Below are positions 329 to 54,946 of a DNA stretch of 64,000 bases, one piece after another. Every line of letters starts with the position of its first letter. Positions within the stretch are counted from its first letter, which is position 1. Source of the stretch: Lingula anatina (Eukaryota > Animalia > Brachiopoda); contig CM120646.1 of NCBI GenBank assembly GCA_051362555.1, positions 24,056,001 through 24,120,000 of the forward strand, written 5' to 3'. The position numbers were made by a program, and so were the translations under genes. The notes below the pieces were generated by a model that worked only from the letters and a program-made list of their open reading frames with translations, did no database searches and was not told where the DNA came from.

Positions 329-2145
329 CTAAGGGCAAGGACTGTGCTGAGCTGTATAAAGGGGGTATCCGCCGCAGTGGAGTGTACACCATCAACCTCC
401 TAAATGGCGGCGGTGACGTGGACGTGTATTGTGACATGAAAACAGACGGGGGAGGGTGGACGGTAAGCTAGGGGTTGAACACATAGAGTGCAGGTGACGT
501 GGACGTGTACTGTGACATGAAAACAGACGGGGGAGGGTGGACGGTAAGCTAGGGGTTGAACACATAGAGTGCAGGTGACGTGGACGTGCACTGTGACATG
601 AAAACAGACGGGGGAGGGTGGACGGTAAGCTAGGGGTTGGACACATACAGTCCAGATGCCGTGGACGTGTACTGTGACATGAAAACAGACGGTGGAGAGT
701 GGACGGTAAGGTGCGGCTTAGATGAAAAACAATGGTTCTTAAATCCAAACAAGGTTTTTATATGTACAGACTCATATTTATACATCTAGTTAGTGATCCT
801 GTAATTAACCAAAGGATATGATGAATTCTGGATTCTGCTCAAAACGTTCAATGACATAACTTGTGTGTTTTTCACCACATATTGCAATCAGTGGACGTGT
901 CTGCTTGGATGGTGAGCCAGTTGAGTGCTCTCTAGCAGGTGCCCTTCTGGCTGGTACAAAACTGAACCCCAGCTGAGGACGTACTTCTTAGAAGTTTGCC
1001 ACAGCTATAATGAGAACATCTTGTAGAGAGTAAACCACAAATCTATAATATCTTGTGTTTGAATTTTTTTTCAATATAGTGTACAGTGAGTGATCCAAAA
1101 GTCAACCGTGTGTATACATCACTTCCGTGGCATTGTGTGCTCAAAGTTTGACAGAATCTTTGTTTGTTACCAGGTGTTCCAGAGACGTATGGACGGCAGC
1201 GTGGATTTCTACAGAGACTGGGCAGCTTATAAATATGGCTTTGGGAATCTGAACGGGGAATATTGGCTAGGTAGGTGTAAGAATGACAGGCCGTAGCCGG
1301 GGGGGGGGGGGGGGAAGGTTCTTTGGGTTCGAAAGAACTGCCCCTTTTGCTGGGAATAGGTCCATTTCTGGGTAAAATTTTATCTATGTACATGAAGTTT
1401 TTTATGGAAAGGGTCCACTTTTTCAGAAAAAGAACACCCCTTTTGAAATCCCTGGCTACGGGCCTGCTGCTATACCTTTGACTGTCATTCTGTGCTCTTT
1501 TTTAGGAAACAAGTTTATACACCTGTTGACTAACCAAGCCCCTTACGAACTCCGCGTGGATCTGGAGGACGCCACAAGAGAGAAGAGATACGCCAAATAC
1601 GCCTACTTCACTATAGGAGATGAAGCTGCCAAATACCGCCTGTCTCTTGGCACGTATTCCGGAACCGCTGGTAATTTAGAGATTTACTCAGCTGATGCTT
1701 AAACTTCTCAGTGTTAGAATTTTATTCACGTGAATCAGTTCAGGGTCGCGATAGCAAAGCTATGAACGTTCTGTATGTCTCAAAAACTTCAATGAAAAGT
1801 ATGTATATACATGTTAACTCACTGGATATACTCAGTTTGTAATACAGTGTCTCTCTGTGAACTTCAGGGGACGCCATATCTCACCACACAGGTCAGTTCT
1901 TTACCACCAAGGATAACGACAACGATGAGAGTTCAGCAAACTGCGCGGTGAGACACAGTGGTGCGTGGTGGTATGATCACTGCCACGGAGCCAATCTGAA
2001 CGGCCTCTACAAGCTGGGGAACGACAATCCCGCTAAAGCTGAGGGTGTCATTTGGAGCAGATTTAGAGGGTATCTGTCCATGAAGACATCGGAAATGAAA
2101 GTCCGCCCAGTCTTTTTCAGTTCATCTCCTGTCGTGGTTGGTTGA
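329..2145 (+). CDS. Fibrinogen-related domain (FReD) protein, ficolin/tenascin/angiopoietin-like C-terminal domain; 5' part lies upstream of the window
   Basis: GT-AG exons 329-462, 1174-1270, 1506-1670 and 1868-2145 join in frame. Translation includes [31 protein letters not shown]|[33 protein letters not shown]|[16 protein letters not shown]..|..[32 protein letters not shown], which are classic FReD motifs. Stop TGA at 2143-2145; AATAAA at 2431. Confidence 0.95.
412..710 (+). repeat. 81-bp tandem repeat (~3.7 copies) spanning the FReD exon end and 5' splice site
   Basis: Unit GGTGACGTGGACGTG..GGGTGGACG|GTAAGCTAGGGGTTGAACACATAGAGTGCA starts at 412, 493, 574 and 655; GTAAG donors at 463, 544, 625 and 706. 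Confidence 0.95.
1287..1466. mobile_element. Small MITE-like element in FReD intron
   Basis: Imperfect terminal inverted repeats CAGGCCGTAGCCGGG (1287) and CCCTGGCTACGGGCCTG (ending 1466); no clear target-site duplication. Confidence 0.6.
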
Positions 2146-2771: not shown

Positions 2772-2807
<36 letters not shown>

Positions 2808-13845: not shown

Positions 13846-16800
13846 TCCTGGCGGCAGCTCAGTTTGTGTCTGTATACTTCAGGTGACATTAAGACCCTGC
13901 AGAATGGGACGCCACTCCTGAAAATTCGACATAAGAAGACGTACCGCCGCTTCTTCTATGTGGCCAGAGACATGAAACACATTTGCTACAGAGGGTCGCG
14001 AAAGTTTGGACATTCTACTGTACATATGTGTAAGTTCACTGTTGAGTTTGATTGTTTCCAGGGTAGTACTATATTATACTTATTATAGAATAACGCGAGA
14101 AGACTAGCGGTGTTACACGTATATCTCCTTCAGATTAATATTTTAATTTCACCCACCGCAATGAAACCTTTTAAGCCACCGATGTCTTATAACATGGTTG
14201 AATTCCTATTGTAAAAGTGCATGTAGCGTGAGACTTGCATTATTATCGTGATAACTGTTCTGTTTATATATTTTGCTATATTTTAAGTGACAGAGAACTT
14301 CAGTTATAGTAAGCATTTGCCCCTTTATATAAGTCTGTCGTTATGTCAGTCAGCAATGGTCTGTTGTTGTTCCAGGTAAACTAAACGACATTGACGACAT
14401 TAGGGAAGGCAAGTTGACAGATGCACTGCAGAAACTGAAACCCAAACCAAGGGTAATTACTGACTTTTGATACAACAAGTGAAGTAACAACAGAATATAT
14501 TTGTGATTGATAGAATAAAATGAATTTATGAAAACTCCGACAGAGATGTGATCTAATATAAATTACATTCTGCGACGTTTTATACATTTCTTATACATTT
14601 CATTTGTTTGCAGTTTGAAATATTTGTTCTTCATTTGCTGTTTACTTTCTCAGTATAGATATTCAAATGTTTAACTTGCCAATCTTATCACCCTTTTCCA
14701 TACAGGACGAGTTTTGTTTCTCGTTAATTCGCGGGAAGAAGTCATACGATTTTATTGCAAGAAATAGCGATGAACGAAACGCTTGGGTCACAGGCCTTCG
14801 CAAACTTCTTAAACAGAAGATGCCAATACACAAAGACTATGAGAATATACGGAAGGCGTATCCTTTAACTTCATCAGTCTGTCAGATCTAAACGTCAACA
14901 AAACCGATATATGTATGGGCCTGTCTGTTTTGATTACAACATCATTTATTTGATTAATTTATCGTGTAATCTGTTGATTTAATTGTACTGATAACGATGG
15001 ATGCCACTGCAGGCTTGTGAAATTTAAACAGTGCACGGTATCTTAGAGGATCAATGGTATAGGCCTAATATTGATTATGCACAAAAGGCTGTAGAATGAA
15101 CAGTGACAAAGTACTTGTATTTTATGGCGTATTTCTTCCACGCCGCACGTTTGAAAACATCACACTTTGCATCTTTAATGATTTTCTTTTGTGAATTTGT
15201 GCATGAAAGAGTACTTGATTAATAAACACATCAGAATTTAACAGGTTACATTTCCTCAGTGTATGACAGCTGGATTGCCCGGTGCTTTCGCAAGGCGGAT
15301 CGGAGCAAAGATGGCCGCCTGACCAGGAAAGAGGTCGTTGACTTGATGGACGCAATGAACGCTGGGATAGATAAAGTGACAATTTCTGAAATGTTTGATG
15401 TAAGTCGTACATAAATCATTTTTAGTTTCGCGACACATTGGAGGGTATGACAAATTTGTTAGAAATTCAACCATATTTAAACAAATTTATTGTTAGTAAC
15501 GTCAGTGACGTTTGTGTATGCTCTTCAAGTTGTAAAGGAACCGAATTAAAATGTCTTCTTCTCATATTGATTACAGAAAGCCAATTTCCGTGACGACAAA
15601 GACGAACACGGCAGAGATGTTCTGGATCTGGAGGAATTCGTTAAGTTCTACGAACTCCTCACGTACAGGGAAGAGCTGGAAGAGTTATTCAAAAGGTTTG
15701 CAAGACTTTAATTTGCTTTGTAGAAAGAATTCTCGTCTATAATTTGAATTGAATTAAATTTGCTTTTCAGGAAAAGGTAGACTATTCATACAAGTTTCGA
15801 TGAAGATGTTTATAATATCATTTCTCGCAGAACAGCGACAGCGTATGTGCTGAAATTCAATGTTTAATTAATAGAGACTCCACCGTGACATAGGCGTTTG
15901 TTTGTACACATTCCCTGTTTTATCTATGCTTATAGTTATACTGGCGGAGGTGAGAATATGAGCGCAGAGGTTCTCAAGACTTTCTTAGAAACAGAACAAA
16001 AGGTGAGTAGAACCAGAAAGATACCACTTTTTATCCCTCGGTATAAAGAATTGTGATTCTTTTATGTCAGTGAGTGGAGCAATATTCCCGTTTTTTTTTC
16101 AACACAATTATACAAGATATCTGAACATATTATTAGGGTGTGTGTGGTTTTGTATTTTCAGGTGGAAAAGAGCATAGAAGACTGCGAGAAACTGATAAAG
16201 GAGTTTGACCCGTGTCAGGAAGACAGCGACCAGACCCTCATGACAGTGGAAGGTAAGTCAGAACAATCTGTCACGTGTCAAGAAGACAGCGACCAGACCC
16301 TCATGACAGTGGAAGGTAAGTCAGAACAACCTGTCACGTGTCAAGAAGACAGCGACCAGACCCTCATGACAGTGGAAGGTAAGTCAGAACAACCTGTCAC
16401 GTGTCAAGAAGACAGCGACCAGACCCTCATGACAGTGGAAGGTAGAACAGGGCACAACCTGTCACGTGACTTTTCTTCATCAGCAGCTGTTAAGTTTATC
16501 AGAGATCAATTCTACGTTTCCTCTCACAGTAGATTTTGTGGAGTGTAAGATATTTCTAGAAATTGTTTAGCAAACGTTACAGTTAGAAATGTCTAAATAA
16601 ATATAAAAGTATGTATAGAAAAATTATAATAATAAAACAAACACGTGAATCTACCCTTTTTTGGCAGGTTTCAAGAAGTTTCTTCTGTCCGAAAGTCAAT
16701 GTTTGTTCAACGTTGCACACCGGTTGATTTATCAAGACATGACACTACCGCTACAGCATTACTTCATTAACAGTTCCCACAACACGTAAGTAGCTTACAT

Positions 16801-19800
16801 GGCGGGGGATATTTCCCTATAAAATATCTGTCTATTCTTCATTAGGTAAAACAGTGTATTTAGGGCCACTTCTCCAACGCAATCTACATGAGTACACTTC
16901 CTCAACACCACCAAAATGCGGTTCACTGAAACATGTGCATGTAGATGAAATAAAATCATGACAGCTGTTTTATACTTTCGATTTCTATTTGAAATTGTCA
17001 AACTGGTGCTGAGTATCAGATTTACTGACGTTATGTTTCCTTGTAGATATCTTACTGAAGACCAGTTAAAAGGCCCCAGCAGCGTGGAGGGGTACATCCG
17101 GGCACTTCAGAAAGGCTGTCGTTGTGTGGAGCGTAAGTGGCCTTCACACAAGAATATTAGAACAACTAGGGAATATGTATATATTTCGATCAAGAATGTA
17201 TCATTAGGAAATGTATTGTCTGCGGTATAACGGTACTTAAGTGGCTCCTTATGGTGGAGAATATTACCACCTCATAATGTTCTATGATTCGATCATTGTG
17301 GTGTATGTTTTACATGTTTTAACAGATTTTTAAAAAGCACATGTCTTTGAACTACACCAACCTACAACAAAAAGTGAGACAAAACTATTGCTTAAAATAT
17401 CGGAGTAATGTAAATGCTTCAATCCCATTTCCAGTGGACTGTTGGGACGGACCAAATAATGAGCCTATTATCTACCACGGTCACACTCTCACGTCCAAAA
17501 TCCTCTTCAAAGACGCCATCGTGGCTATTAAGAACTTTGCGTTCGTGGCATCAAAGTACGTATTTATAAACTTTATTATTGGGTATTGGAATGAAAGAAT
17601 GTAAAGCCAAGAGAACTGTTTGTTAATTTCTGTGCCTCTCTTGTACGATTCCGTAATCTTTTTCATTAAAAGTAACCTGCCTTATCAAGAACATGTTGTA
17701 TTGAATTATTCTCCCGCCATTGTTGGAAGTTTGTTGATAATTGTGTTATTTGCCCCAGATTTAGGTTGCTTTGCTATAAATTATGGTAAAACAAACTGTC
17801 CCCCCCATTCCAGATACCCAGTGATCCTGTCCCTGGAGAACCACTGCTCTGTACCTCAGCAGACGGTAATGGCAAAGCACATGAAGACTATCCTAGGAGG
17901 TAACTTGGGCTCATCGGGGGGAGGGGGGGTCTTTTTTGACCCCCTTGTATCGTTTTCTATTTATGATAATACTGGCACGCTACACCTTCTAAATACTTGG
18001 TTTAAGAAACGTGTGATCGTATTGACGTCTTCTTTTATGTTGGTTGGATATAAATGTCTCTACGAACTTCTGATGACCTTTTCATGAAAAAAAAAAAAAC
18101 ACTCCAACAGAAAAGAAAGATTATGGTCGTGGTTAGCATTACAAATGTGAATTAAATTATATGATGAAATTTTGCAGCCTATTGATGTGATTTCAGACAC
18201 CCTATATTCACCTCCGGGGGGCATTGAGAGCTTGAAAGAGTTTCCTTCTCCGGAAGACCTCATAGAGAAAATTATAATCAAGGTATCCATAATTCTTATC
18301 ATATAATTCTTATCATATACGCTAGTATGTGCCTTCTTTGCACTTTTTCACTGTTGACCACAATTTGTATGCAGTTAAGCGAGTCAAAGAGGCTGACATG
18401 TGCATTACTTTTGGCAAATGCCTATATTAATCTACTAACAAACTATTTTATATTTGCAATACCAGCTTAAATTTTTATTTGAAATAATTTTGCCTATTGT
18501 CGCTTTACTTCTTCCTAGAAGCCATGCAAACTGATCACTTTTGCAATGATTATATTTTTTCGCGTTTGGATTAAAACGCCATATTTTTCTTGTTCAGCCT
18601 AACCACGGTTTCAATGCATTAAGTTGTAGGTGTTTTAGTATGATAAATGTATTTAGCGTTATTTAACATATGTACACCACTTTGTAGGGAAAGAAACTGC
18701 CGCCTCAGGTAAGACAGGTCCACGTGTATGGGACCCAAGTGTGTCAGATTACTGGTCATGTTAACCATGCCATGCGTTCATTTTTTCCACCAGTTTACAT
18801 TAGATGTGTTGACTTTACCGGTATCCATTACCGTTTTATTTAGAGTGTTTGGTATTTTACTTATTACCTGGTAGTGCTGAAATTAATTGTTTTAAATTTT
18901 AATCAAAGTTAGTGACACAAAAATTTGATAACCCAGGCTTGACCCTTTAATATTTGCCGGTACGTCATTCCCTGTTCATATTACCGCGCGCTACAACAGG
19001 CGGGCAGTGCTTGCCGCTAAGAGCGAAGCATGTCATTGGTTATCAGCGTGTAGGGCTTTACTGCAGGATCACGAGTATTTTACATAATAAATTAGTAGCT
19101 GTGGGAATGAAGGTGTGACTCTAACTAATTTGCATGCGTTTGGTTTTATAACTTTATAATTCGCCTAAATATTGAGTATAATGCGGAAATCGAGGTGAAA
19201 GTTTGCTTGGGATTTTTAAAATAAAAACATGCTTGAGCTTGAGTGTGTGTCATCATTCATTTTGGGTTGTACTCGCACTGGCAAAGAATGGTTTTCATAA
19301 GATTTAACGCACGAACGCATGGTTTGAGGTGATAAAGGTAAGCAGTGTTCCCAGTCACGTTGAACCGACATAACTTAGTATGCCCATCTTAGCTGGAGTT
19401 CTGATTACAATCAGTATCCCTGATTACAATCAGTATTCTGATTACAATCAGTATCCCACAGAAGGCCAAAGTATTGATACCTCAGCCAAGTGATGGTGTG
19501 TGGGATAGCAGAAGGACTAGATCCCATCGCCTCGATCTTATCGTTCACACAGACTTATGATGTGGGACGTTTTAAGAGAGATGGGTTCACCGTGACTGGA
19601 AACAGATTAAAGTTATTTGCTCGTAAGATGTGTGCGATTTGTATTGTGAGCGCGTGTTTTTAAAATACGTTAACTTCAGTAAATTGTGATGGATGTCTGT
19701 TGTAACAGGGAGTTAGGTAGGTGTGGAGACCAGCTAAACCCTAGATTTGGTATTTCGTCTAATAGGCCCTATCGGGCAAAGCATGGAGAGTAGAAGGGGT

Positions 19801-24276: not shown

Positions 24277-24349
24277 TACCCCCGGCGGGACTCGAACCCG
24301 CAATCTTCGGTTTAGGAGACCGACGCCTTATCCATTAGGCCACGGGGGC
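24277..24349 (-). tRNA. tRNA-Arg-CCT: tRNA-Arg, anticodon CCT
   Basis: Reverse complement GCCCCCGTGGCCTAATGGATAAGGCGTCGGTCTCCTAAACCGAAGATTGCGGGTTCGAGTCCCGCCGGGGGTA: 73 nt, intact cloverleaf with A and B boxes, anticodon loop CTCCTAA. Confidence 0.96.
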
Positions 24350-26399: not shown

Positions 26400-29300
26400 T
26401 CACCACTTTTTGATTTTGATGATGATGGCTGCTATGGCGCAGAGTCCCCATCCCCAACCTATAGCCACCAGAAACCCGCGCCATACCTCCATGTAGGTGA
26501 TATCCCAGCCTGAAATTACAACCAGGGAATTTTTTAAATACATTTATTAGTTTATGAGAATTATAAATAGTATATATACTGTATGTGGAGATGGCAAATC
26601 GCTATAAGTATATGTCCTCATCTTATAATAAATCTAAAATGTAACCAATTAACTAATAAATGTATATTCATTATTGAGAAAAAAAAAGAAAAAAGTCATA
26701 TTATGATAAATACTGAAATGATAATTTTAAAAATAAGTTGATTACAGGGGGGGTTGGAGGGTCTGGCACATCTGAGGGTGGCTGTGGGAGGGGGTAGGCA
26801 GTGGGCGAGAATCAACCTGAGGGTGGCTGTGGGAGGTAGTAGACAGTGGACTGGAATCAACCTGAGGGTGGCTGTGGGAGGGAGTAGACAGTGGACTGGA
26901 ATCAACCTGAGGGTGGCTGTGGGAGGGAGTAGACAGTGGACTGGAATCAACCTGAGGGCGGCTATGGGAGGGAGTAGACAGTGGACTGGAATCAACCTGA
27001 GGGCTGCTGTTGGAGGGAGTGGACAGTGGACCGGAATCAACCTGAGGGCGGTCAAGTGGCTAGTTCAGAAATGCACATTTTATAGTAGGAAATTTGCCAC
27101 TAAATACATACAGAATGAATGAATGGGGGGCTGAATTTAGATGAAAACCTGAAGGAGGAAAGCACTGAGTTACTGAAAAATACCAGAATGAATGAAGGAA
27201 CGTGGGGGTGGGGAGTCTTACTGCTGTGTCTCAAGTTATAAAATTATTGGTTCATATGTTTTTGAGAAATGATTAAATAAGAGCAGCCCATGTAACTCTC
27301 TTAGAAAGTTCTCTTTATGAATGGTATTTTTTTTCCTTCACATGGTGTAAATGTTTCCATTATTCTTTATACAAAAATATAATGCAGCACAGTAATACAG
27401 AAAGGCAGTTTTAAAAGCTTCTGCTATTTTCTTTAATGCTAACATGATATTTTCTGTTCAACTGTAATCATTAAGGTTCTCACCTCTACTAAGGATACAC
27501 CTCATTGCTTCTGCTGCATACGTGGAGGGCATAGCAATACTGACATATCTCAGCCACGGCGGCATAGCTTCTAGAGGCCATATTATACCTGAAATACACA
27601 TGTACATATACTGACATATCTCAGCCAAGGCGGCATAGCTTCTAGAGGCCATATTATACCTGAAATACACATCTACATATACTGACATATCTCAGCCAAG
27701 GCGGCATAGCTTCTAGAGGCCATATTATACCTGAAATACACATCTACATATACTGACATATCTCAGCCAAGGCGGCATACCTTCTAGAGGCTTTATTATA
27801 CCTGAAATAAACATCTACATATACTGACATATCTCAGCCAAGGCGGCATAGCTTCTAGAGGCCATATTATACCTGAAATACACATGTACATATACTGACA
27901 TATCTCAGCCAAGGCGGCATAGCTTCTAGAGGCCATATTATACCTGAAATACACATCTACATATACTGACATATCTCAGCCAAGGCGGCATACCTTCTAG
28001 AGGCTTTATTATACCTGAAATAAACATCTACATATACTGACATATCTCAGCCAAGGCGGCATAGCTTCTAGAGGCCATATTATACCTGAAATACACATGT
28101 ACATATACTGACATATCTCAGCCAAGGCGGCATAGCTTCTAGAGGCCATATTATACCTGAAATACACATCTACATATACTGACATATCTCAGCCAAGGCG
28201 GCATACCTTCTAGAGGCTTTATTATACCTGAAATAAACATCTACATATACTGACATATCTCAGCCAAGGCGGCATAGCTTCTAGAGGCCATATTATACCT
28301 GAAATACACATGTACATATACTGACATATCTCAGCCAAGGCGGCATAGCTTCTAGAGGCCATATTATACCTGAAATACACATCTACATATACTGACATAT
28401 CTCAGCCAAGGCGGCATACCTTCTAGAGGCTTTATTATACCTGAAATACACATCTACATATACTGACATATCTCAGCCAAGGCGGCATAGCTTCTAGAGG
28501 CCATATTATACCTGAAATACACATGTACATATACTGACATATCTCAGCCAAGGCGGCATAGCTTCTAGAGGCCATATTATACCTGAAATACACATCTACA
28601 TATACTGACATATCTCAGCCAAGGCGGCATACCTTCTAGAGGCTTTATTATACCTGAAACTAGAGGATCAGAGAGGCGATACCGCCTCCGAATATTGTAC
28701 CACCAGCTGGAGCAAGCGCATTCGTATAGACCCCCCCATACACAAAATAAGGGACACAGCCACCAGTTTTGTGCTTGACAAGCTGTAAAAATGCAATCAA
28801 CAAGAATTTTTAAACTATTGCAAAAAATATATATGGTACAATCAAATTTAAGTTCTTCGTAAGGTAGGTCAAGGGTCAATTTCAAGGTCACAGTAAATTG
28901 CCAGTATATGACTTCCTATTCAAGTTCAAGAGTAACTATGGACCTATCTCTGTCAAGTTTGAAGTTAAAAGAGAAAGAAATTAGCAGAGTTCAGTTCATG
29001 ATAAAAAGTAGGTCAAAGGTCAATTTCAAGGTCACATTTAGATTGCCAGTATATGACATTCTATTCAAGTTCAATAGTAACTATGGACCTATCTCTGCCA
29101 GTTTTGGAGATAAAAGGGAAGCAAAATTTGCAAAGTTCAGTTTATGGTGAAAAGTAGGACAAAGGTCAATTTTAATGTCACATTTATAATGCCAGTATAT
29201 GACTTCCTATTCAAGTTCAATAGTAACTATGGACCTATCTCTGCCAGTTTTGGAGATAAAAGGAAAGCAAAATTTGCAAAATTCAGTTCATGGTGTAAAG

Positions 29301-32300
29301 TAGGTCAAAGGTCAATTTTAAGGTCACATTTAGATTGCCAGTATATGACTTCCTATTCAAGTTCAATAGTAACTATGGACCTATCTCTGCCAGTTTTGGA
29401 GATAAAAGGAAAGCAAAATTTGCAAAGTTCAGTTCATGGTGAAAAGTAGGTCAAAGGTCAATTTCAAGGTCACATTTAGATTGCCAGTATATGACTTCCT
29501 ATTCAAGTTCAATAGTAACTATGGACCTATCTCTGCCAGTTTTGGAGATAAAAGGGAAGCAAAATTTGCAAAATTCAGTTCATGGTGTAAAGTAGGTCAA
29601 AGGTCAATTTTAAGGTCACATTTAGATTGCCAGTATATGACTTCCTTTTCAAGTTCAATAGTAACTATGGACCTATCTCTGCCAGTTTTGGAGATAAAAG
29701 GAAAGCAAAATTTGCAAAATTCAGTTCATGGTGAAAAGTAGGTCAAAGGTCAATTTCAAGGTCACATTTAGATTGCCAGTATATGACTTCCTATTCAAGT
29801 TCAATAGTAACTATGGACCTATCTCTGCCAGTTTTGGAGATAAAAGGAAAGCAAAATTTGCAAAATTCAGTTCATGGTGTAAAGTAGGTCAAAGGTCAAT
29901 TTTAAGGTCACATTTAGATTGCCAGTATATGACTTCCTATTAGAGTTTAATAGTAACTATGGACCTATCTCTGCCAGTTTTGGAGATAAAAGGGAAGCAA
30001 ATTTTGCAAAGTTCAGTTTATGGTGAAAAGTAGGTCAAAGGTCAATTTTAAGGTCACATTTAGATTGCCAGTATATGACTTCCTATTCAAGTTCAATAGT
30101 AACAATGGACCTATCTCTGCCAGTTTTGGAGATAAAAGGGAAGAAAAATTTGCAAAGTTCAGTTCATGGTGAAAAGTAGGTCAAAGGTCACTTTCAAGGT
30201 CATAGGAAGATTGCCAGTATATGACTTCCTATTCAACTTCAATAGTAACTATGGACCTATCTCTGCCACTTTTGGAGATAAAAGGGAAGCAAATTTTGCA
30301 AAGTTCAGTTCATGGTGAAAAGTAGGTCAAAGGTCACTTTCAATGTCATAGGAAGATTGCCAGTATATGACTTCCTATTCAACTTCAATAGTAACTATGG
30401 ACCTATCTCTGCCAGTTTTGGAGATAAAAGGGAAGCAAATTTTGCAAAGTTCAGTTTATGGTGAAAAGTAGGTCAAAGGTCAATTTTAAGGTCACATTTA
30501 GATTGCCAGTATATGACTTCCTATTCAAGTTCAATAGTAACTATGGACCTATCTCTGCCAGTTTTGGAGATAAAAGGGAAGAAAAATTTGCAAAGTTCAG
30601 TTCATGGTGAAAAGTAGGTCAAAGGTCACTTTCAAGGTCATAGGAAGATTGCCAGTATATGACTTCCTATTCAAGTTCAATAGTAACTATGGACCTATCT
30701 CTGCCAGTTTTGGAGATATAAGGGACTAAATGTTATAATTTTGGAGTTACCATAATGTGCCTTAAATTTCGTACAGAAAAAATTAATTAAAATAAAGAAA
30801 ATGTCATTTTGGTCAAAATTCTTGAAATAGGAGGTGCTCTGAAGTTTCAGAAGTTCAAATTTGATGAAATAATGTCATTTTTGAACACAAGTTGTCTGCT
30901 TTGCCAAGCCTTATGTTTTATTTTTCCAGAGTTCAAAATTTATTATCCATTACCGTACTGCACATTATGCTTTTACCACTACTATGTACTTTTTGATACA
31001 GCGTAACTCGAAAACCGTATGGAATACAAAAAAACCGAGACCACCTCCAGTGTTGGGCTTTACATGCTCTACAAAATGCAAAAAAGAATGGGTCTCTAGC
31101 ATTAACGGTTCCCGAATTAGAGACAGTTTTCAGTTTCGGTATCTTATGGTCGCTACTCCCGTGAAAATGCACCGATTGACCCCAAATTCATGGAGATGAA
31201 AGATGACCTGAAGGGTAACACTTTCCAATAATATTATTGGTTAAGTCTGTGTGGTGTCTGAATAACAGGGCAAAAAAATTTTTTTTCGTAAAAAATTTCA
31301 TTTTTTTGAAAATTTTGGCCCATTTGACCTTGAAGTAAAGGTCAAAGGTCAAATCCAAGGGTATATTTGAAATCTACACATATGACTTTTGGAAAGCTGT
31401 CTATAGAAATTTTTCCCATAACTCCTTCCGTAGGGTAGATAATTAGCATTTAATTTTGCCATTTTTAGACAAGGGTGCATTGCAATGAGTGCCACACCCA
31501 GACCCCAATACCGACAAAGCCCAAATTTTACGTGGAACGAGTTGAGATTATAGGTGACCTAAATCCATGAGATGGGTACGGGGGCCCTTACCGTCTAGGA
31601 GGAGAAGCGGTAACGGTAGCCGTCCGGCGGAGCCGGCGGAGCCAACGGAGCCGGCGGAGCCGGCGGAACGATCCGGACGGGACCGAAACCATGTGTACCG
31701 CCAGCGCTAACGCTGGTGGTACAATAAACATCTACATATACTGACATATCTCAGCCAAGGCGGCATAGCTTCTAGAGGCCATATTATACCTGAAATACAC
31801 ATCTACATATACTGACATATCTCAGCCAAGGCGGCATACCTTCTAGAGGCTTTATTATACCTGAAATAAACATCTACATATACTGACATATCTCAGCCAA
31901 GGCGGCATAGCTTCTAGAGGCCATATTATACCTTAAATACACATGTACATATACTGACATATCTCAGCCAAGGCGGCATAGCTTCTAGAGGCTTTATTAT
32001 ACCTGAAATACACATCTACATATACTGACATATCTCAGCCAAGGCGGCATAGCTTCTAGAGGCCATATTATACCTTAAATACACATGTACATATACTGAC
32101 ATATCCCAGCCAAGGTGGCATAGCTTCTAGAGGCCATATTATACCTGAAATACACATCTACATATACTGACATATCTCAGCCAAGGCGGCATACCTTCTA
32201 GAGGCCATATTATACCTTAAATACACATGTACATATACTGAAATATCTCAGCCAAGGCGGCATAGCTTCTAGAGGCCATATTATACCTGAAATACACATC

Positions 32301-35177
32301 TACATATACTGACATATCTCAGCCAAGGTGGCATAGCTTCTAGAGGCCAAATTATACCTGAAATACACATGTACATATACAGACTGGGGCTGATGAAAAA
32401 AACTCCTTTTATCCCAGCAGATTCACAATTAAATGAGACAGAGAGCAATACCTTACCACTCAGTATTATAACAGGATATGCTGTGCCTAGAGCAGCTTGT
32501 ATGGCAGACTGTTCCTTGTCACATACAGCTGATATGAGTAAACCCAGAGACATGCCTGCAAAGCCCTCAATCAACACCAGTAATATTGCCCAGATGACAG
32601 GACCACGCGATGGAACCTGGAAAATAAATAAATATGTTGTACAAACACACTATCTTTTGCAATTTTAATAAATGTGCCAGAAGGTAACTGAAAGTAATTA
32701 ATGAAAATAATACTTTGTAAGAAATTACAAACAAATTATATCAGTATTTAAACCCTTGTTCTAGTATCCAGCACTGAATAAAAATTTTTTAAGTGTTCAA
32801 CTAAAATAATTTCAAAAGGTACCACATCTCAAACTGAAGAGAACATTTATCCAAAGATTTACCTTGAAGACAAGAACCACAAACTAAAGAGAACATTTAT
32901 CCAAAGATTTACCTTGAAGACAAGAACCACAAACTAAAGAGAACATTTATCCAAAGATTTACCTTGAAGACAAGAACCACAAACTAAAGAGAACATTTAT
33001 CCAAAGATTTACCTTGAAGACAAGAACCACAAACTAAAGAGAACATTTATCCAAAGATTCACCTTGAAGACAAGAACCACAAACTAAAGAGAACATTTAT
33101 CCAAAGATTTACCTTGAAGACCAGCAGTGTGAAGACAAACAGCAGCGCCATCTGTACTATGAGCACCAGGAACTGTGTCAATACATGAGCCACCATCACT
33201 TCCATCACATTGACTCCTGACAGTGGAAGACAGAGAACATGACACTGAGTGTGCTGGTGGACAGTGACAGCATGATCTCTGCTACGTTTACTTTTTAATT
33301 CACATAAAGAGCAGGCAATAAAATATTACAACTGAAACAGCCATTTATAAGTGATATCTATTTGTGATAAATTGTGGCAAGGCAGAAGTTATAGCAGGGA
33401 TGCTAGTGGGGTCTGGAAAGAAAACCTGAACTTTTCTTTTGGCAAAGACCGGGGGGGGGGGGGGGGGGGTACAAATTGATTATGAAACAATTACTATATT
33501 TCAAATTTTATTTAATAAATATATTGCAATATATGTCATCACAACTTCATGGTAATTTTCAACAGTTGTTTCCAAGGATAATCTTGACATTGACAAGATG
33601 GAAGTGCCATCAGTACATAAACACCTACCACCCATAGTAGACAGTAATGATCCTTCACGTAAGCTTGATAATCACCAGCATGATAATGATAGTCACTAAA
33701 TGTTAATCCCTTTCATTTATCATTTTCAAAGATTGGTAATGGCTTTCGTGGTAATGCCCAAGCAACAGTGGGGCTCCAACTGCAGTCTCATTAATCAAAG
33801 TTTCTAAAACTCCAACTAAATCTATTTTTGACAGTAATGTCGATGTTTCTAATATCGTCTGTTCCCCTCTCCGCGAAATCCATTTAGTTTGGTTTAGTTC
33901 AAAATTCCGCGCACGCGGTGTCAAAACTTTCCACATGGGTGCCGACATTAAAGCCTACATTTCCAACCAATCAAGCGCCATAAATAAATCACGTGCTACG
34001 GTTGTGACTAGATATTGTGTTGAAACGCAGCTCTGTCGCAATGGTTGAAATGCGACGTTCCTCTGACGCATCGTTCGTCCAGTCCGCGACCACGTTAAAA
34101 ACGAGAATTCCAGAACAAAATATAGTACCAGAAAATTTTATAACTGGACGCAAAAAACCGGAATTCCGGTAAAAACCGGAAGACTAGCATCCCTGTTATA
34201 GTATGTTTTAGAAATAATAGTAACAACTTTAAAATAATCAACAGGCTTCCTAAATATAAATTCTTGCATAAGTGAGTTAACAGGCACCCACAAACACACA
34301 CACACACACGCACACACACACACACATGCAAACAAAAATGAGCATACCTGTTGTCAGACTCCTGTCCAACAGTCCTTCCTTCCTTTCCAGTACAAATGCC
34401 AAAGCTGTGAGTCCACAGGCCATGAAGAATGTAATACTGGAAAAATGAGATCACTATAACAGCAGCTGGGTGTGACATTGTGTTAGTTTGTTAGATGAGA
34501 TCACAGGCCATGAAGAATGTAATACTGGAAAAGTATTATCACTATAACAGCAGCTGGGTGTGACATTGTGTTAGTGTGTTAGATGAGACACATTTAGAGA
34601 AGAGCCACTTAAATTTATGATAACTATACTTTGAAACTTTTTAACATTAAATTATTTGCCTCTCAATAATAATTATAATAAAATAATAAGTAGAAAAGTA
34701 ATGAGGATTATTAACATACATATCTTGTACCAATAAACAAATAAAGATTTAGACATATAAATAAACCTCCATATCTATACTTCTATTCAAAACTATTAAA
34801 GCTGCTACCTGATGATTATCCCAGGGGCCATGAAGTTGGTAAAGGAGGGCTTCCTGTCACCATAAACTGGCTCTTCCAACTGGAAATATATATGACTGTT
34901 CAAACTGACCATATTTCCTTCATCAGCCTATTTTTAGCACACACATAAAAGAACTCTCACATAACCCCATCTCAAACTTTCTCTCTGTCTCTCTCCCATT
35001 CACAGGCACACACTCTGCCATGCCGCTCCCCCTCTCTCCATTCACCTCTTTCCCATTCATCTCTCTCTCTCTCTCTCTCTCTCTGTTCCTCTCTCTGTAT
35101 CTTTTTCACCCTTTCCCTCACTCTCCCTCCCTTTCATCCAAACTCTCTACTCTCTATATTAACTCCTCTCTCTTCCT

Positions 35178-35223
<46 letters not shown>

Positions 35224-38200
35224 AACTAACCTTCACTGGTAAGTCTGCTGCGTGAACATTAAGTCCCAAACTCCTCAACATGTCGGTGGTGAATGCCTGG
35301 AACCCTGTCATGATCTCCTGTTGGATAGACAGGGCTATCTGCTGGTCTAAACACACAATATCAGTATATATGATGTGATAGACAGGGCTATCTGCTGGTC
35401 TAAACACACAATATCAGTATATATGATGTGATAGACAGGGCTATCTGCTGGTCTAAACACACAATATCAGTATATATGATGTGATAGACAGGGCTATCTG
35501 CTGGTCTAAACACACAATATCAGTATATATGATGTGATAGACAGGGCTATCTGCTGGTCTAAACACACAATATCAGTATATATGATGTGATAGACAGGGC
35601 TATCTGCTGGTCTAAACACACAATATCAGTATATATGATGTGATAGACAGGGCTATCTGCTGGTCTAAACACACAATACTAGTATATATGATGTGATAGA
35701 CAGGGCTATCTGCTGGTCTCAACACACAATACTAGTATATATGATGTGATAGACAGGGCTATCTGCTGGTCTAAACACACAATATCAGTATATATGATGT
35801 GATAGACAGGGCTATCTGCTGGTCTAAACACACAATACTAGTATATATGACATTCATAGAAAACACCAAAAAAATGTGTTTAATCCACCATCTACTTCAC
35901 CTCAACATTTAGCTGACAAACATCAGGCAGGTGATTCAATATATTTCTTTATTCTGTAAAAAATGCTACATATAATTATAAATATGCAGCGTTATTTGCA
36001 GTTTTAACTGTCAATATCCCCAAATTCTCTCTTACTTGTCATATCCAGATAGAGTTTGACACTGCTGCCATCTATTGTTTTGTTGTCCACACTGCTGGTA
36101 TTACTAACTCTGGAAAAACAAGACATAAGAATGTTTATTTTACATTTTTCATGGGAAACAAAGTGCTAATGTCTTCATTTTACTATGGCCAATTTAACCC
36201 CATCTTTATGTACAGCCTGTTTTTCAATGTGATACACACACATTACATTACTTTTATAATTTATCACAACCTAAGTTTGTGAAAGTGTGTAACTTCATAT
36301 CTACTCGTGATACGTCAACTCAGACCATCATAACATTGGCAAACTATAACAATTACCTAAGAAAAAGATCCTGAGTGAAATTCTTGCCAACAAACACTGC
36401 CCCCCAGGCGTCTCCTTGCTTGACAGTGTTCAAAGCAGAGGTAAGATCACTATAATTGACCTGAGGAGAGAAGACACAGAATTTACAGTTATAATGCTAC
36501 AATGATGTTAGAAAAATGTAAAGTCAGCGTGCTCTGCCATTAATTTTGTTTTTTACTGTTATTTACAGTATTAAAATCTTGATTGTCAGATATCTTACTG
36601 ATAACCACCTAAAAACAAATTCAAACATTTCACCATAAAGCTTTGACAACACAACAAACGCCAATAATTTTCTGACATTATCACTATTTGACATGTTATT
36701 ATTTCTGAATCAGCTACCTTTGCAAAGGTCTCATTACTCAAGTGATTTATGACCATAGCCCCACAGTTCATTCCCAGCATGCCTTGGTCTTGGTTCACTA
36801 TGGCAACGGTGAGGTCACGTGGCTCTGGACCAATACACAGACAGAACAGAATAATCTGGATGGAAGGTAGCATGAACTCAAAGAATAGAAACCTGGAAAG
36901 ACACATTTATAACAGCAGTGATGTGAAGGAGGATTGCTAAAATAGTCTAAAATGGTATAATTCTTGAAAAGAGGCTATTCACCTGGACAGCCTCATTCCC
37001 TGACGAAGATATTATGCTAGACATCAAAATATTGGACGTAAAAACTACGTCAATATTAAGCTGTTGACTGAAGAAAAATTACTTTATTCCTAAATTAGTC
37101 ATGTTTTAGACAAGCAACAAGTTCAATCTGAAGAAGATGTCTTCCTGGACTCACCCAAGGTTTCTGCTCATGATAATCAGGTTCTTGATCACCAGGGCTA
37201 AGATGTTGGTAGGTTTAGGAAGAGAAAACCAAGACCAGCACCTGGTACAACACTTACTGCTGTGCTCTAGGTCTGGAAGGGTAAATATACAGACAGTTAA
37301 TATACACTTACTGCTGTGCTCTAGGTCTGGAAGGTTAAATATACAGGCTGTTAATATACACTTACTGCTGTGCTCTAAGTCTGGAAGGGTAAATATACAG
37401 GCTGTTAATATACACTTACTGCTGTGCTCTAAGTCTGGAAGGGTAAATATACAGGCTGTTAATTCACATAAATCATTTGTTTCACCAGGTTGTAAATGAT
37501 ATGATATCAGTTATACTGTACCTACCAGTGGAATGTGTATTGGTGGAGAATTCGCCAGGCTGTAAATGTCTATAATGTTTGGAAGTTGAACTACGCTGGC
37601 TATCCTCCAACAGCTGGCTTCTGTCTCCATGGTGACGGAATTCTATACTGTACGCACTGGTCTCAGCACCCTGAAGACAGACGGAAGTGTTGAAGATTAA
37701 GTCATCAAAATTTTTGTAATCTAACAACATAACTCTAGTCGAACCAGCAAGCACATTTGTCTACTGTCCACATGACTCTCAAACAAAACCATTTTCTAAG
37801 CAACTTCTGTAAATATATTTGATATTATTAAGTAAAGTCAAACATACTTCAAGAGATAAAAATAAACTCTGCAGGAATATAACTTGAATACATCATGAGA
37901 TTGTACATTCAAATCTACTAAAAATGAAATAAAACTAAAATGCCCTAGTGTGTTGCCCAGTTATACTGGTCAGTTACCTGAAAGACCAAGCTGTCGTCAG
38001 TGTACACAGTGTTGTCTGTGGTGTTCAGCAGTAAGCCATCTGTAGTAACACCAGGTTCTGCTGTATCTGCCAGAGTGCTGTCTTGCTGGCAAAGCTTGAG
38101 AAACACATCTTCCAGAGTCTAGAACAACAACAGAAACACACCTTTCAGAGTCTAGAACAGCAACAAAATACAAACTTTACAAAAAAGGAATCTTGTTGTT

Positions 38201-39434
38201 GGTTTTAGCTTGTTTAACTAGGAACTATATATAGCCTGTATGGTCAACCCTCTGGTCACTCAGAACAGCATGGACCAAAATGAACTAGTCCAAAGATTAA
38301 ATCTACAGATAAAGGAAAACAATATTAAACAACTGTTTCCACCAGTTAAACAATTGCTCTACTTTGAGACATCCATTTTACAAGATCATACCAAATCTAA
38401 TGGTCAACTCCCAGTGCCCTCTGTTCTTATACTGACCTCCATTCTGTGTGTTATGAGAAGATGTTCAGGACTGGATTCAGCCAAAAGTTTTCTCTGTCGC
38501 ATCAATCCCACCTGGAACACAGCTATCACTATAACTGATATCTTTATATACTTCAACAAATAGCAATATGGGCAGTTTAAAGGTACTTCATCACTACAAG
38601 TCTACCAGCCACTGGGCCTATTAATACTAGGTATATAACTGTGCTCACATCTCACTCCATATACCAACATCTCACAGGATTATAACAATATTACAAGGTA
38701 TATATATATATGTGCTCACATCTCACTCCATATACCAACATCTCACTGGATTATAACAATATTACAAGGTATATATATATATGTGCTCACATCTCACTCC
38801 ATATACCAACATCTCACTGGATTATAACAATATTACAAGGTATAAATATGTGCTCACATCTCACTCCATATACCAACATCTCACTGGATTATAACAATAT
38901 TACAAGGTATATATCTGTGCTCACATCTCACTCCATATACCAACATCTCACAGGATTATAACAATATTACAAGGTATATATCTGTGATCAGGTCTCACTC
39001 CATATACCAACATCTCACCAGATTATAACAACATTACAAGGTATATATCTGTGATCACATCTCACTCCATATACCAACATCTCACTGGATTATAACAATA
39101 TTACAAGGTATATATCTGTGCTCACATCTCACTCCATATACCAACATCTCACTGGATTATAACAATATTACAAGGTATATATCTGTGATCAGGTCTCACT
39201 CCATATACCAACATCTCACCAGATTATAACAACATTACAAGGTATATATCTGTGCTCATGTCTCAACTGATATATACCTAAGCATATTAGCAGCTTGTCA
39301 GAGTTCTGGTTAAAACAACTAGGTTTTAATTTTTATCTACATCAGAATAAATTTATACCAGAGTAAGACAACATATTACATATACATATAGCAGAGTAAG
39401 TCCAGATTTTTACTATGTCAGCCTGCCTGGCCTC

Positions 39435-39515
<81 letters not shown>

Positions 39516-41170
39516 ACAGTAAGTCAAGAGTCTTACCATGTCAGCCTGTCTGGCCTCCTCTATATAATGAGTGGTCAACAAGATGGTAGTGTGGCCTGTC
39601 TTGGCTATTTCTAACAGGTGCTCCCATATCCTGAAGATAAATACCACATTACTGTTATATCTATTACTCTGCAACAGGAGATTATATGCATTTCTCTCCA
39701 ACATTTTATTTGAAAAAAATTCACAACCTCACCACACTTACTTCTGCCTCAGCAGGGGGTCTACTCCAACAGTGGGTTCATCTAAAATAAGGAGTCTTGG
39801 CTCATGAATTAGGGCACAAGCAAATGATACTCTTCTTTTCTGTCCTCCACTAAAATTACAAAATTGTTCATATTCATGTAGCAAATTAATAATTGAATTT
39901 CACATTTAATTAATATCTTTATTTAAGCCCAAACAAAAAACAATTATTTTCATCCTTCACTGATATTCCATTCACCCATCAAACACTTAATAAGTCAAAC
40001 AGTCAATAAATTTAATTATCATTTTTATTCTTTATTTTTCTTTTTGTCTATTTTTTGTTTATTGTGTCTCTTATATTTGGTCAAACAATTTTAGTGTGAC
40101 CTTTTTAATCTCCACACACTACCTTAGAGTTTGTATTTGTCTCCCTTTAGATGGGAGGTCCAGAAATTTTACCAAGAAATCGGTTCTTATCACAGCATTT
40201 TCCCTAGACATTCCGAGAATCCTTCCAAAGTAGGCCAACGTTTCTTCAATGGTCAACTTCTCAAACAGCGCTGTGTCCTGGAATGGCAAAAAATGAAAAG
40301 AAAAAAAGGACAGAAAATTCAAATGCAAGATGAGCTCAATCTAGTTTAATATGAAATTGAGTTCAGAAACATATATTTAAAAGCAAAATATCAAAGCTTC
40401 CAAGAATTAATAGGGGGTTGCATATGTATTGGTTAATTGTATGGGAGTAGCTTGTGACTTCTGTGCACATAAGTAAGTTGTATAAGGGGAGTACATTAGT
40501 AATGGTTGTATGAGGGAGTAGCAGAGAAGTCACAGGCTACCCCCCCCCCCCCCCCCCTCTTATACAACACACTTATGTAGACAGAAATGACATTCTCTTT
40601 AAGTACCTGAGGCATGTAGCCAATCAGCTTTCCAGGCACCTCGTGACCTCTGGCCCCCGGCTTTTGACCTAGAACTGTCACATGACCTGCATCCACCTCC
40701 AGACGGCCAACTAGAGCTCGTAATAGAGTGGTTTTACCACTCCCACTAGGACCTAAGAGCCCATAGCTAAAAAACAGAATGATTAACAAATGTTAAAGAA
40801 ATTTATCTTTCTTTACCTGATTACAAATCACTGGCATCAGTGAGGGATAACACAGCAATTAATCAAGTATTGCTTTATTCTGACATAGATAAATGAATGG
40901 CTTCCACACGCTCAGTAAATACAGCTATCATGTCTAGGTAAGCTACTAGTACATCCACACATCTACTCCCAGATTTCAACTACTGCAGTGTTTTTATTCT
41001 AAGGACTACTAGGACAAATTGTCTGATGTTCAAGAGAGCTGTAACTGCTGTCATACTGACATGCATCCCTGTGGTACAGTGAGAGAACAGTCCTGTAAAG
41101 CCTGGACGCCATTTCTCTTGGATCCATATCTCTTGTAGACACTCCTCACTTCTACTGCATCCTGGGCCAT
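26400..41170 (-). CDS. ABCH: ABC half transporter, NBD-TMD architecture, ABCH / 'ABC transporter G family member 20/23'-like, 737 aa
   Basis: Exons 41170-41061, 40766-40607, 40277-40123, 39849-39742, 39630-39537, 38511-38437, 38118-37978, 37670-37526, 37272-37155, 36892-36718, 36460-36357, 36109-36036, 35346-35231, 34879-34809, 34436-34348, 33216-33113, 32616-32457, 27588-27484, 26509-26400 sum to 2214 nt in one open frame. Motifs: Walker [18 protein letters not shown], signature [10 protein letters not shown], Walker [61 protein letters not shown]. Subfamily assignment is by motif resemblance only. Confidence 0.93.
26771..27052. repeat. 45-bp G-rich intronic minisatellite (~6 copies)
   Basis: Unit CCTGAGGGTGGCTGTGGGAGGGAGTAGACAGTGGACTGGAATCAA in the last ABC intron. 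Confidence 0.92.
27537..28659 (-). repeat. 71-bp tandem array containing the ABC splice acceptor plus 52 nt of exon (exon-proximal block, ~16 copies)
   Basis: Minus-strand unit ..ATGTGTATTTCAG|GTATAATATGGCCTCTAGAAGCTATGCCGCCTTGGCTGAGATATGTCAGTAT..; period 71, with a variant unit recurring every 213 bp. Confidence 0.96.
28660..31724 (-). mobile_element. Non-autonomous Helentron/Helitron2-type (HINE-like) element with internal satellite, inserted in the 71-bp array
   Basis: Interrupts a 71-bp unit with no TSD (minus-strand A|T site). One end is CTAG preceded by hairpin GAGGCG-GTAT-CGCCTC; the other is palindrome GTACCGCCAGCG-CTAA-CGCTGGTGGTAC. Asymmetric inverted repeat TTGTACCACCAGC (28695-28707) pairs with GCTGGTGGTACAA (31712-31724). 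GC-rich CCGGCGGAG microrepeat at ~31620-31680. Confidence 0.82.
28845..30725. repeat. 146-bp satellite (~13 copies) inside the HINE-like element
   Basis: GCCAGTATATGAC recurs at 28900, 29045, 29191, 29337 and onward; 292-bp dimer periodicity is visible in ORFs starting 29144, 29436 and 29728. Confidence 0.95.
31725..32380 (-). repeat. 71-bp acceptor-containing array, distal block (~9 copies)
   Basis: Same unit as 27537-28659, resuming in register after the inserted element and ending about 76 nt from the upstream donor at 32456. Confidence 0.96.
32831..33121 (-). repeat. 50-bp tandem repeat (~6 copies) containing an ABC splice donor
   Basis: Plus-strand ACCTTGAAGA at 32861, 32911, 32961, 33011, 33061 and 33111, i.e. 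minus-strand GTCTTCAAG|GTAAATCT; the functional donor is at 33112. Confidence 0.93.
33395..34195. mobile_element. Non-autonomous DNA transposon, 801 bp, in an ABC intron
   Basis: Perfect 13-bp TIRs CAGGGATGCTAGT and ACTAGCATCCCTG, flanked by direct repeat TTATAG (33389-33394 and 34196-34201). Confidence 0.75.
34414..34588 (-). repeat. 88-bp duplication spanning an ABC splice acceptor
   Basis: CACAGGCCATGAAGAATGTAATACTGGAAAA..GTTAGATGAGA at 34414 and 34502; acceptors at 34437 and 34525. Confidence 0.9.
35324..35850 (-). repeat. 53-bp tandem repeat (~10 copies) spanning an ABC splice acceptor
   Basis: Plus unit GATAGACAGGGCTATCTGCTGGTCTAAACACACAATATCAGTATATATGATGT, i.e. minus-strand TGTGTGTTTAG|ACCAGCAGATAGCCCTGTCTATC; the functional acceptor is at 35347. 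Confidence 0.95.
37250..37463 (-). repeat. 54-bp tandem repeat (4 copies) spanning an ABC splice acceptor; in frame
   Basis: Units at 37250, 37304, 37358 and 37412; CCTTCCAG acceptors at 37273, 37327, 37381 and 37435. Confidence 0.93.
38099..38164 (-). repeat. 33-bp duplication spanning an ABC splice acceptor
   Basis: AGAAACACATCTTCCAGAGTCTAGAACAACAAC followed by AGAAACACACCTTTCAGAGTCTAGAACAGCAAC. Confidence 0.88.
38630..39260. repeat. ~67-bp intronic minisatellite (~9 copies)
   Basis: Unit TGTGCTCACATCTCACTCCATATACCAACATCTCACTGGATTATAACAATATTACAAGGTATATATC; does not include a splice site. Confidence 0.92.
39394..39566 (-). repeat. Duplicated ABC exon end plus donor, separated by an (AT)n microsatellite
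   Basis: ..AGTAAGTCCAGATTTTTACTATGTCAGCCTGCCTGGCCTCCTCTATATA versus ..AGTAAGTCAAGAGTCTTACCATGTCAGCCTGTCTGGCCTCCTCTATATA; the ORF track shows YIEEARQAD twice. Confidence 0.88.
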
Positions 41171-53644: not shown

Positions 53645-54946
53645 AGCTCACTGATACGGCAAGAGATCTCAGCTCAGATCACAGTTTCAACTCACTGAAA
53701 ATGTTGAGTTCATTTACTGGAAACTTCTCTCTTTTTGACTTGTGCTTTAAGAATTCTTTGGAATGAAGTTATGTTATTATACGAGTTAACTGGTAAATAT
53801 TCCTATTCATCGTGTCACCTCATTGGTAATATTTGTCACTAAGTGGGCTGCTGACGTCATTCTGACCACTGTGAAACAGCGGGTTATTGTAAGTGACTGA
53901 CAACAAGATCTGACAGATCTTCTCTGCTTCAGTTAGCGCTATGGTGATTGGAGGAAAATAACCTGAGCGCTGCGTGTCACGTTGCAGCAACGGTGTTCTG
54001 AAAAAACAAAATCCTCCTCCTAAGATAAACCGTATAACTGTCACGCTCTCTTGTCCTCAAATGCTGTCTGAGAGAGCGGAACTTTGTATATTTCTTTTCT
54101 GTCCTGTACTTATTAAGTTCACAGTGCGGTACACATAAGTCGCTGTTTATTTATTCAGCGCTTCTTTGTTGTCTAATCCGCCTTTTTGCCGACTGAAAAT
54201 AAAAAAGTATATGAAGGTAGGCTACAAACTGGTATTTCGTGGGTGTAACGTAAATAGCAACATATCGTAATGGCATTGGTTTTATCGAATTCTGTGACTA
54301 TGAGAGTGATATTAGTTGAAAGATGAACTTTTGTAACTTAAGGTGCATGTTGTGACATCTGTTCAATGGTAACAATTTGGTTGACACGTGATACGTACCG
54401 CCGTGTGGAAAAAAAACAACTGTTAACCGAATTTTTATTTTTCGACGAATTACTAGATGTGATTTGGGATACCGTTAACTTGAAGATTGGATTAGCATCC
54501 GTCTAGGAGGTATTCAGTGTAAGGGTATGTGGAGGTAATATAGGGAAGGTTTATTAACAGAAAATAAGGAAAACTTAAAACAGATAAATACATGATGTAG
54601 TGTGGACCTCCAGTTAAACCGTCTCCATTCAATCTTTTCTCGGAGCAGATCTACTGACAGTGCCAGGAAAGTATGATTACAGTACGCTCATTCCTTCTTC
54701 TAAATGACACAGAATGCAGATATATCAATCTCGAGTTAGCAAAGAAGCAAAGGATTTTCTAGGGTTGTGAATTTTCACAAGGCAAGGTAAAAGCTTTAAT
54801 GAAAAGATATCAAGTTGCATAAGCTATTCAAACGCGACTGTCTGTTCGTTGTATCGCTGAAGAAATGAGTAACAGATAATCTGTACTATTTGCACGTTTA
54901 TAAAATTTCCCTTCTTTTAAAATGTAATGGAAGAATAACTGAAAAG

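Follow-up and report, generated by a model that had tools for sequence, protein, structure and literature searches.

The minisatellite of amphioxus Adh3 reportedly shows somatic instability. Tandem repeats of this kind, which span an exon-intron boundary, were named mirages in that gene and are also recorded in globin, troponin C and PGBD5 genes; splicing is reported to be undisturbed, repeat length varies and the origin is called unclear (PMC3087553, PMC3902484). In the globin gene BflGb6 the unit joins the 3' intron end to the 5' part of exon 2 and occurs in 6 and 3 units, and BflGb9 is listed as well (PMC3087553, PMC3902484). A comparable repeat on the donor side is the 37-bp variable number tandem repeat (VNTR) in intron 7 of human F7, for which minigene tests are reported in which the pseudo-sites were silent and the exon-proximal donor alone was used (PMC1557585). 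Here we analyze a stretch of 64,000 nt from the brachiopod Lingula anatina (assembly GCA_051362555.1, contig CM120646.1, positions 24,056,001 to 24,120,000; hereafter the window), in which intron 17 of a predicted ABC transporter gene contains 25 copies of its own acceptor (Table 1). The array is a large mirage minisatellite, a repeat type that is already known, and spliced RNA enters its last copy. It appears to be tolerated and is likely harmless.

The 25 acceptor copies are spaced at exactly 71 nt and are split by a mobile-element insert into groups of nine (first exon bases 32357..31789) and 16 (28653..27588). From the donor to the first copy is 99 nt, and 99 + 24 × 71 + 3,065 gives exactly 4,868 nt, which bears out the original prediction, made from the sequence alone, of about 25 near-identical 3' splice sites in an intron once of about 100 nt and now of 4.87 kb. 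Each unit consists of the intron end plus about 52 exon-like nt and differs from the real copy at 0 to 6 positions, with the exception of the copy joined to the insert. The claim that decoys precede the functional acceptor at 27589 holds for 24 upstream copies, except that the copy at 28653 has the 3' end of the insert, not unit sequence, upstream of its TTTCAG. Acceptors end in CAG in 22 copies and in AAG in three, the latter being the few TTTAAG copies that had been noted. Translation from every one of the 24 upstream copies reaches a stop after 25 to 27 codons, with loss of the last 55 conserved residues; the reading from copy 1 is exactly the truncated one that had been predicted. The last copy alone continues into sequence conserved in all 10 aligned homologues, and the expectation that it alone gives a full protein was correct. 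We distinguished 12 unit types in an ordered arrangement, with a three-unit higher-order pattern on both sides of the insert. The first and last copies carry private bases, a pattern of homogenization inside the cluster that excludes the boundary units, as in mirages.

The gene is predicted from its sequence to encode an ABCH (ABCG20/23-like) half transporter, with a nucleotide-binding domain followed by an ABC2-type membrane domain. In a protein search, exon 2 is matched at 62-77% by ABCH1 and ABCG20/23-like proteins, its nearest named relatives. The complete protein is 33-53% identical to the 10 aligned homologues, which were picked from 107 matches. Pfam searches with single exons gave an ABC_tran match and a weak ABC2_membrane match, and exon 17 alone as a protein query found no match at E ≤ 1e-6 among 387 candidates.

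To establish which acceptor is used, we placed RNA reads on positions 32270-32825, a target that holds exon 17 and only the first copy, and told the copies apart by private bases and by the continuation of the reads. Five of nine listed poly(A)-type short-read runs, from three studies, were covered (about 6% of each of X12-X15 and 25% of X18), and joints or loose ends were listed from three reads upward. The exon 17 joint was found in 32 reads from all five runs, with a short side of at most 49 letters, ending exactly where decoy and real exon diverge. All 72 listed read continuations at the point of divergence enter the unique half of exon 18 (23 in X12, 15 in X13, 21 in X14, 7 in X15 and 6 in X18). 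No decoy joint or decoy-type loose end reached three reads in any of the five runs, and with 0 of 72 the upper 95% limit on decoy products is about 4% of RNA at steady state. The array-bearing gene thus still makes regular mRNA, as reported for mirages.

Private bases agree with this result. The base private to the last copy was present in 73 of 76 reads from four runs (X12, 26 of 26; X13, 19 of 22; X14, 21 of 21; X15, 7 of 7). In X18 it was present in none of seven reads, yet six reads continue into the complete exon. The plus-strand C at 27557, which had been proposed as a marker of the functional copy, is private to the last copy in the window but depends on the allele. The private base of copy 1 occurred in 0 of 51 RNA reads, although DNA run X4 suggests that this base is not in every haplotype. 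Run X18 also has nine listed synonymous-type differences in the 160-nt exon 17 (32457-32616), where the other runs match the window; its animals may belong to a strongly diverged population, or to a cryptic species that shares the label.

Two possible bases for the choice were rejected. Weaker decoy acceptors are ruled out as its cause: decoys score 8.7-10.2, the real copy 8.7 and the three AAG copies 2.2, and 21 of 24 decoys score equal to or higher than the real acceptor. Masking of decoys by RNA structure was not predicted, as the real site is unpaired at 0.08 versus 0.18-0.55 for decoys (a weak indication from a single fold of the last four copies). Since 21 of 24 decoys score at least as well and folding does not favor the real site, the choice must use downstream features.

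We therefore favor, at a probability of about two in three, the reading that a 25-copy repeat of the intron end and the first half of the next exon is entered at its last copy, likely by exon definition, and that the other copies are likely neutral intron. The exon would be recognized as a unit and the acceptor nearest its own donor taken; the last copy alone appears to adjoin the unique second half of exon 18, with a strong donor 105 nt away, while the exons defined by the next upstream copies would be 176, 247 and 318 nt, up to 4.9 kb. The same geometry is found in all eight splice-site arrays of the window, in which the complete exon adjoins the last acceptor or the first donor. In rare decoy products the stop would fall no less than 99 nt upstream of the last junction, and their degradation would be likely. 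At the unit junction lies an 8-nt near-match, in which 7 of 8 letters agree between the intron, 27 nt upstream of the AG, and the exon, about 45 nt downstream of it. Slippage or break repair at this near-match may have given rise to the array, with unequal exchange probably responsible for expansion and homogenization. As the three-unit pattern runs across the insert, the insert arrived after the expansion. According to a study of splice-site choice, exon definition favors the sites closest across the exon (PMC9225289).

Several observations weigh against this reading. By the same account, the effect of exon definition on 3' sites is limited to weakening an upstream preference, and in short introns the donor-nearest site is favored (PMC9225289). 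The ancestral intron measured 99 nt, so by analogy with this human rule the first duplication should have favored the decoy; exon definition does not fully explain either the completeness of the choice or the survival of that first duplication. In X13, about two sense-strand reads pass through intronic portions of internal units, and the base of the last copy is missing from 3 of 22 reads. The internal-unit reads may come from pre-mRNA, in which 25 copies collapse onto one, or from decoy-spliced transcripts. Products lost to decay do not show up in poly(A) RNA, and in these runs a strict choice would look the same as removal of decoy products. The private bases were defined from the window, and the animals that supplied the RNA may carry other array haplotypes.

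Decay of stop-bearing products is the main rival, although we consider it unlikely. Decoys, mainly the nearest few, or 44-nt mini-exons formed via the donor inside the unit, could be used at a real rate and their products degraded, lowering output. All decoys place their stop a minimum of 99 nt upstream of the last junction, which satisfies the 50-55 nt rule of nonsense-mediated decay. The cryptic donor, 44 nt inside each unit, scores 5.0 bits and exceeds 4 of 35 native donors, and the two or three array-type reads of X13 are in keeping with some leakage. Against leakage stand the lack of any decoy joint or loose end at the three-read threshold in five runs and the bound of about 4% on the steady state. 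Arrays that are in frame, hence immune to decay, persist too, and in-frame pseudo-sites also went unused in the F7 minigenes (PMC1557585).

Recursive splicing would join exon 17 to a decoy AG, reuse the GT behind it as a donor and remove the array stepwise down to the last copy. The original prediction offered it as an alternative to strict exon definition; the entry of RNA into the last copy fits strict choice, and we found no positive support for recursion, which we regard as very improbable. It would yield the same end product and is compatible with the mature RNA. Every copy does have AG followed by GT, but the arrangement, which had been read as a ratchet point, is not special: GT follows 10 of the 38 annotated acceptors in the window. 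Here the GT supplies positions two and three of a glycine codon, and homologues conserve this glycine; the acceptor arrays at exons 7, 9, 13 and 15 lack GT behind AG, yet persist. The regenerated donor had rightly been expected to be weak. On a matrix built from the 35 native donors of the window, with leave-one-out scoring, it reaches 0.3 bits, versus 3.6-12.5 for all native donors and 5.0 for the cryptic donor in the unit. It matches the U1 consensus at four of nine positions, where native donors match at five to eight. The same nine letters arise when exons 17 and 18 are joined in the mature RNA, in which exon 18 is retained; no skipping from exon 17 to 19 was listed in the five RNA runs. 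In Drosophila, weakening the ratchet donor below the donor of the cryptic exon is reported to lead to exon inclusion (PMC8605326). By analogy this rule would predict frameshifting 44-nt exons here, not ratcheting, and none were listed.

Genomic reads were examined in three of 11 listed DNA runs (X1, X3 and X4, from three studies; X1 may be the source sample of the window). The original prediction had named the presence of the array in raw genomic reads as a check, and a multicopy unit was seen in each run. Summed contig depth over the unit versus the unique flank was 612-3805 versus 83.5 in X1, 398-2324 versus 117.6 in X3 and 310-582 versus 49.5 in X4; contig depth over the unit is not copy number, and both the depth ratios and the listed unit variants differ among the runs. 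We give next to no credence to an assembly artefact, with the array inflated or absent from real chromosomes: near-identical units are hard to assemble, their exact number is that of the assembly and the depth ratios of X3 and X4 are below that of X1, but the unit stands at many times flank depth, in branching contigs, in three runs of three studies, X1 contains the same unit variants as the window, and the 12 unit types are ordered.

The insert lies inside one unit and has the organization of a non-autonomous Helentron-like element of the HINE type: matching 5' and 3' subterminal repeats, an inverted copy, a microsatellite in the left module, a central array and a 3' palindrome. It is without a target-site duplication, as its flanks rejoin into an intact unit variant and the lengths sum exactly. 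No other copies were found in the rest of the window.

The same repeat type occurs at five other splice sites of the transporter gene, which shows that it is not a device of intron 17; one further splice site in each of two neighboring genes, which from their translations we take to be phospholipase C-like and fibrinogen-domain genes, is also straddled by an array. In addition, the donor of intron 17 itself is duplicated in some DNA runs (32432-32512). X3 shows a joint that jumps back by 81 nt and has 5 letters in between, at a depth of 111.6; in X4 the evidence is a depth of 27.1 in the table of between-letters together with raised depth, the duplication being absent from the joint table; in X1 depth is flat. 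Both ends of the once 99-nt intron 17 are thus duplicated in this species, and at least one of the events is polymorphic.

Table 1. Features of the transporter gene, its intron 17 array and insert, and other splice-site arrays of the window
Feature	Position	Strand	Remarks
ABCH / ABCG20-23-like half transporter gene (predicted)	26400..41170	-	19 coding exons joined in a single open frame, 737 aa
Exon 17	32457..32616	-	Its donor starts the expanded intron; RNA joint in 32 reads, 5 runs
Intron 17	27589..32456	-	4,868 nt; 99 nt without extra units and insert
Exon 18	27484..27588	-	105 nt; functional acceptor AG at 27590-27589; 72 RNA read continuations
Upper array block	31725..32384	-	9 decoy acceptors, 3 with AAG
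Lower array block	27537..28659	-	15 decoys and the functional copy; variants repeat every 3 units (213 nt)
Insert	28660..31724	-	3,065 nt, non-autonomous Helentron-like (HINE-type), inside one unit, no target duplication; terminal repeats, hairpins, inner repeats
Insert 5' subterminal repeat and adjacent inverted copy (hairpin)	31694..31724	-	
Insert microsatellite	31624..31667		9-nt unit × 4.9
Insert central tandem repeat	28864..30725		146-nt unit × 12.8
Insert 3' end	28673..28707	-	3' subterminal repeat 28695-28707; 6-bp palindrome 28673-28688
Mirage, exon 16 donor	32830..33121	-	50 nt × 5.8
Mirage, exon 15 acceptor	34414..34592	-	88 nt × 2
Mirage, exon 13 acceptor	35324..35850	-	53 nt × 9.9
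Mirage, exon 9 acceptor	37250..37463	-	54 nt × 4; three decoys, all in frame and stop-free
Mirage, exon 7 acceptor	38099..38172	-	33 nt × 2.3
Mirage, donor of neighboring phospholipase C-like gene	16211..16468	+	63 nt × 4.1; in frame, stop-free
Mirage, donor of fibrinogen-domain gene	412..710	+	81 nt × 3.7
Donor-side duplication, exon 17 donor	32432..32512	-	Tandem in DNA runs X3 and X4; single in window and X1

Arrays with periods of at least 20 nt cover a splice site more often than expected. Within the spans of the three annotated genes, with each array collapsed to one unit, 8 of 11 do so versus 2.6 expected (P = 0.0006), in a post hoc test on a single window that was selected for holding such an array, with exons set by hand and composition uncontrolled. 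The excess persists when wholly exonic placements are disallowed (8 of 11 versus 3.07 expected; P = 0.002) and without the focal array (7 of 10 versus 2.73 expected; P = 0.005); over the whole window, 8 of 17 arrays cover a splice site. Microsatellites, shorter periods, nested rows and the insert's own array were left out, and the two blocks of the intron 17 array were counted as one. As annotated by hand, the phospholipase C-like gene does not form a single open frame, and at least one of its boundaries or exons is off; boundary positions bear on the enrichment only within a few bases.

Other repeats in these genes are also of interest. Two wholly intronic minisatellites of the transporter gene, at 26772-27048 (45 nt × 6.2) and 38625-39265 (67 nt × 9.4), lie clear of all annotated splice sites; CAG followed by GT is found in the 45-nt unit as well. 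At 39396-39566 (minus strand) lies one more copy of the end of transporter exon 5, preceded by a (TA)38 run and with a decayed donor. This is an interrupted mirage of greater age, absent from the output of the tandem finder. In the phospholipase C-like gene, a 21-nt in-frame piece at 18688-18708 (plus strand) matches at least the first 14 bases of the exon at 20125 and has AG before and GTAAGA after it. Judged by its sequence, it is a candidate micro-exon that arose by duplication of the start of an exon, in line with the exon- and intron-gain model for mirages. The extra units of the fibrinogen-domain donor array (494-705, plus strand) form a 50-nt exon-like piece with AG before and a donor after, and are possible frameshifting mini-exons. 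Elsewhere in the window we identified a single-exon G-protein-coupled receptor (52319-53647, minus strand), FMRFamide/RGWamide-receptor-like by the names of its matches, whose identity is 59% with a Lingula protein and 43-56% with the other listed relatives, the named ones being lophotrochozoan. A tRNA-Arg(CCT) gene is present at 24277-24349 (minus strand).

Such arrays can mislead gene annotation and give rise to stop-bearing models. The roughly threefold excess of minisatellites at junctions, if genome-wide, needs a mutational explanation, and published work on mirages calls their origin unclear (PMC3087553). Our literature search found no genome-wide account of splice-site-straddling arrays, a weak negative given the poor coverage of subscription journals. 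Tentatively, and with more doubt than confidence, we raise the possibility that this lineage has a bias toward junction-directed tandem duplication that is active and polymorphic, together with a nearly errorless choice of the exon-adjacent acceptor among up to 25, without decay and even from a 99-nt intron. If true, the genome would serve as an existing resource both for quantifying exon definition and for following how exons and introns are born from mirages. The locus is a natural experiment, with 24 decoys carrying private marker bases, in-frame sister arrays and a presence/absence duplication at the other end of intron 17, in which acceptor choice, decay and recursion are distinguishable by RNA data alone. 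The best internal control is offered by the two in-frame arrays, at the acceptor of exon 9 (54 nt) and at the donor of the phospholipase-like gene (63 nt), as decay is impossible there.

Compared with described systems, the insert resembles Cg_HINE of the Pacific oyster in its 5' subterminal repeat, inverted copy, microsatellite, 3' subterminal repeat and 3' palindrome (PMC7492417). It shares the central tandem array as well, with a 146-nt unit against HINE units of 140-180 bp, but differs in that its microsatellite and array are separated by about 0.9 kb of unique sequence (reported, 10-500 bp) and in its microsatellite unit of 9 nt (reported, 3-8) (PMC7492417). The array acceptors share with Drosophila ratchet points the AG directly followed by GT and a possible short cryptic exon with its own donor; unlike in them, the regenerated donor is far from consensus and weaker than the donor of the cryptic exon, the sites come from a recent repeat rather than from conserved motifs, and the intron was 99 nt before expansion (PMC8605326). 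As in the F7 VNTR, identical competing splice sites were produced by a junction-spanning minisatellite and the site adjoining the intact exon is used. The F7 repeat, however, lies on the donor side and has 5-9 copies (PMC1557585), whereas the array here is on the acceptor side, and a 5'-to-3' scan that started at the donor would choose a wrong copy. The closest match is to the amphioxus mirages: head-to-tail copies across an exon-intron boundary, a 71-nt unit within the reported 10-160 bp, a splice signal kept in most units, normal mRNA, end units that escape homogenization, and both donor and acceptor sides affected (PMC3087553, PMC3902484). In contrast to them, the array described here is from a lophotrochozoan rather than a cephalochordate, has 25 units and is split by a mobile element, and it is one of six arrays in a single gene that also carries a polymorphic seventh (PMC3087553, PMC3902484).

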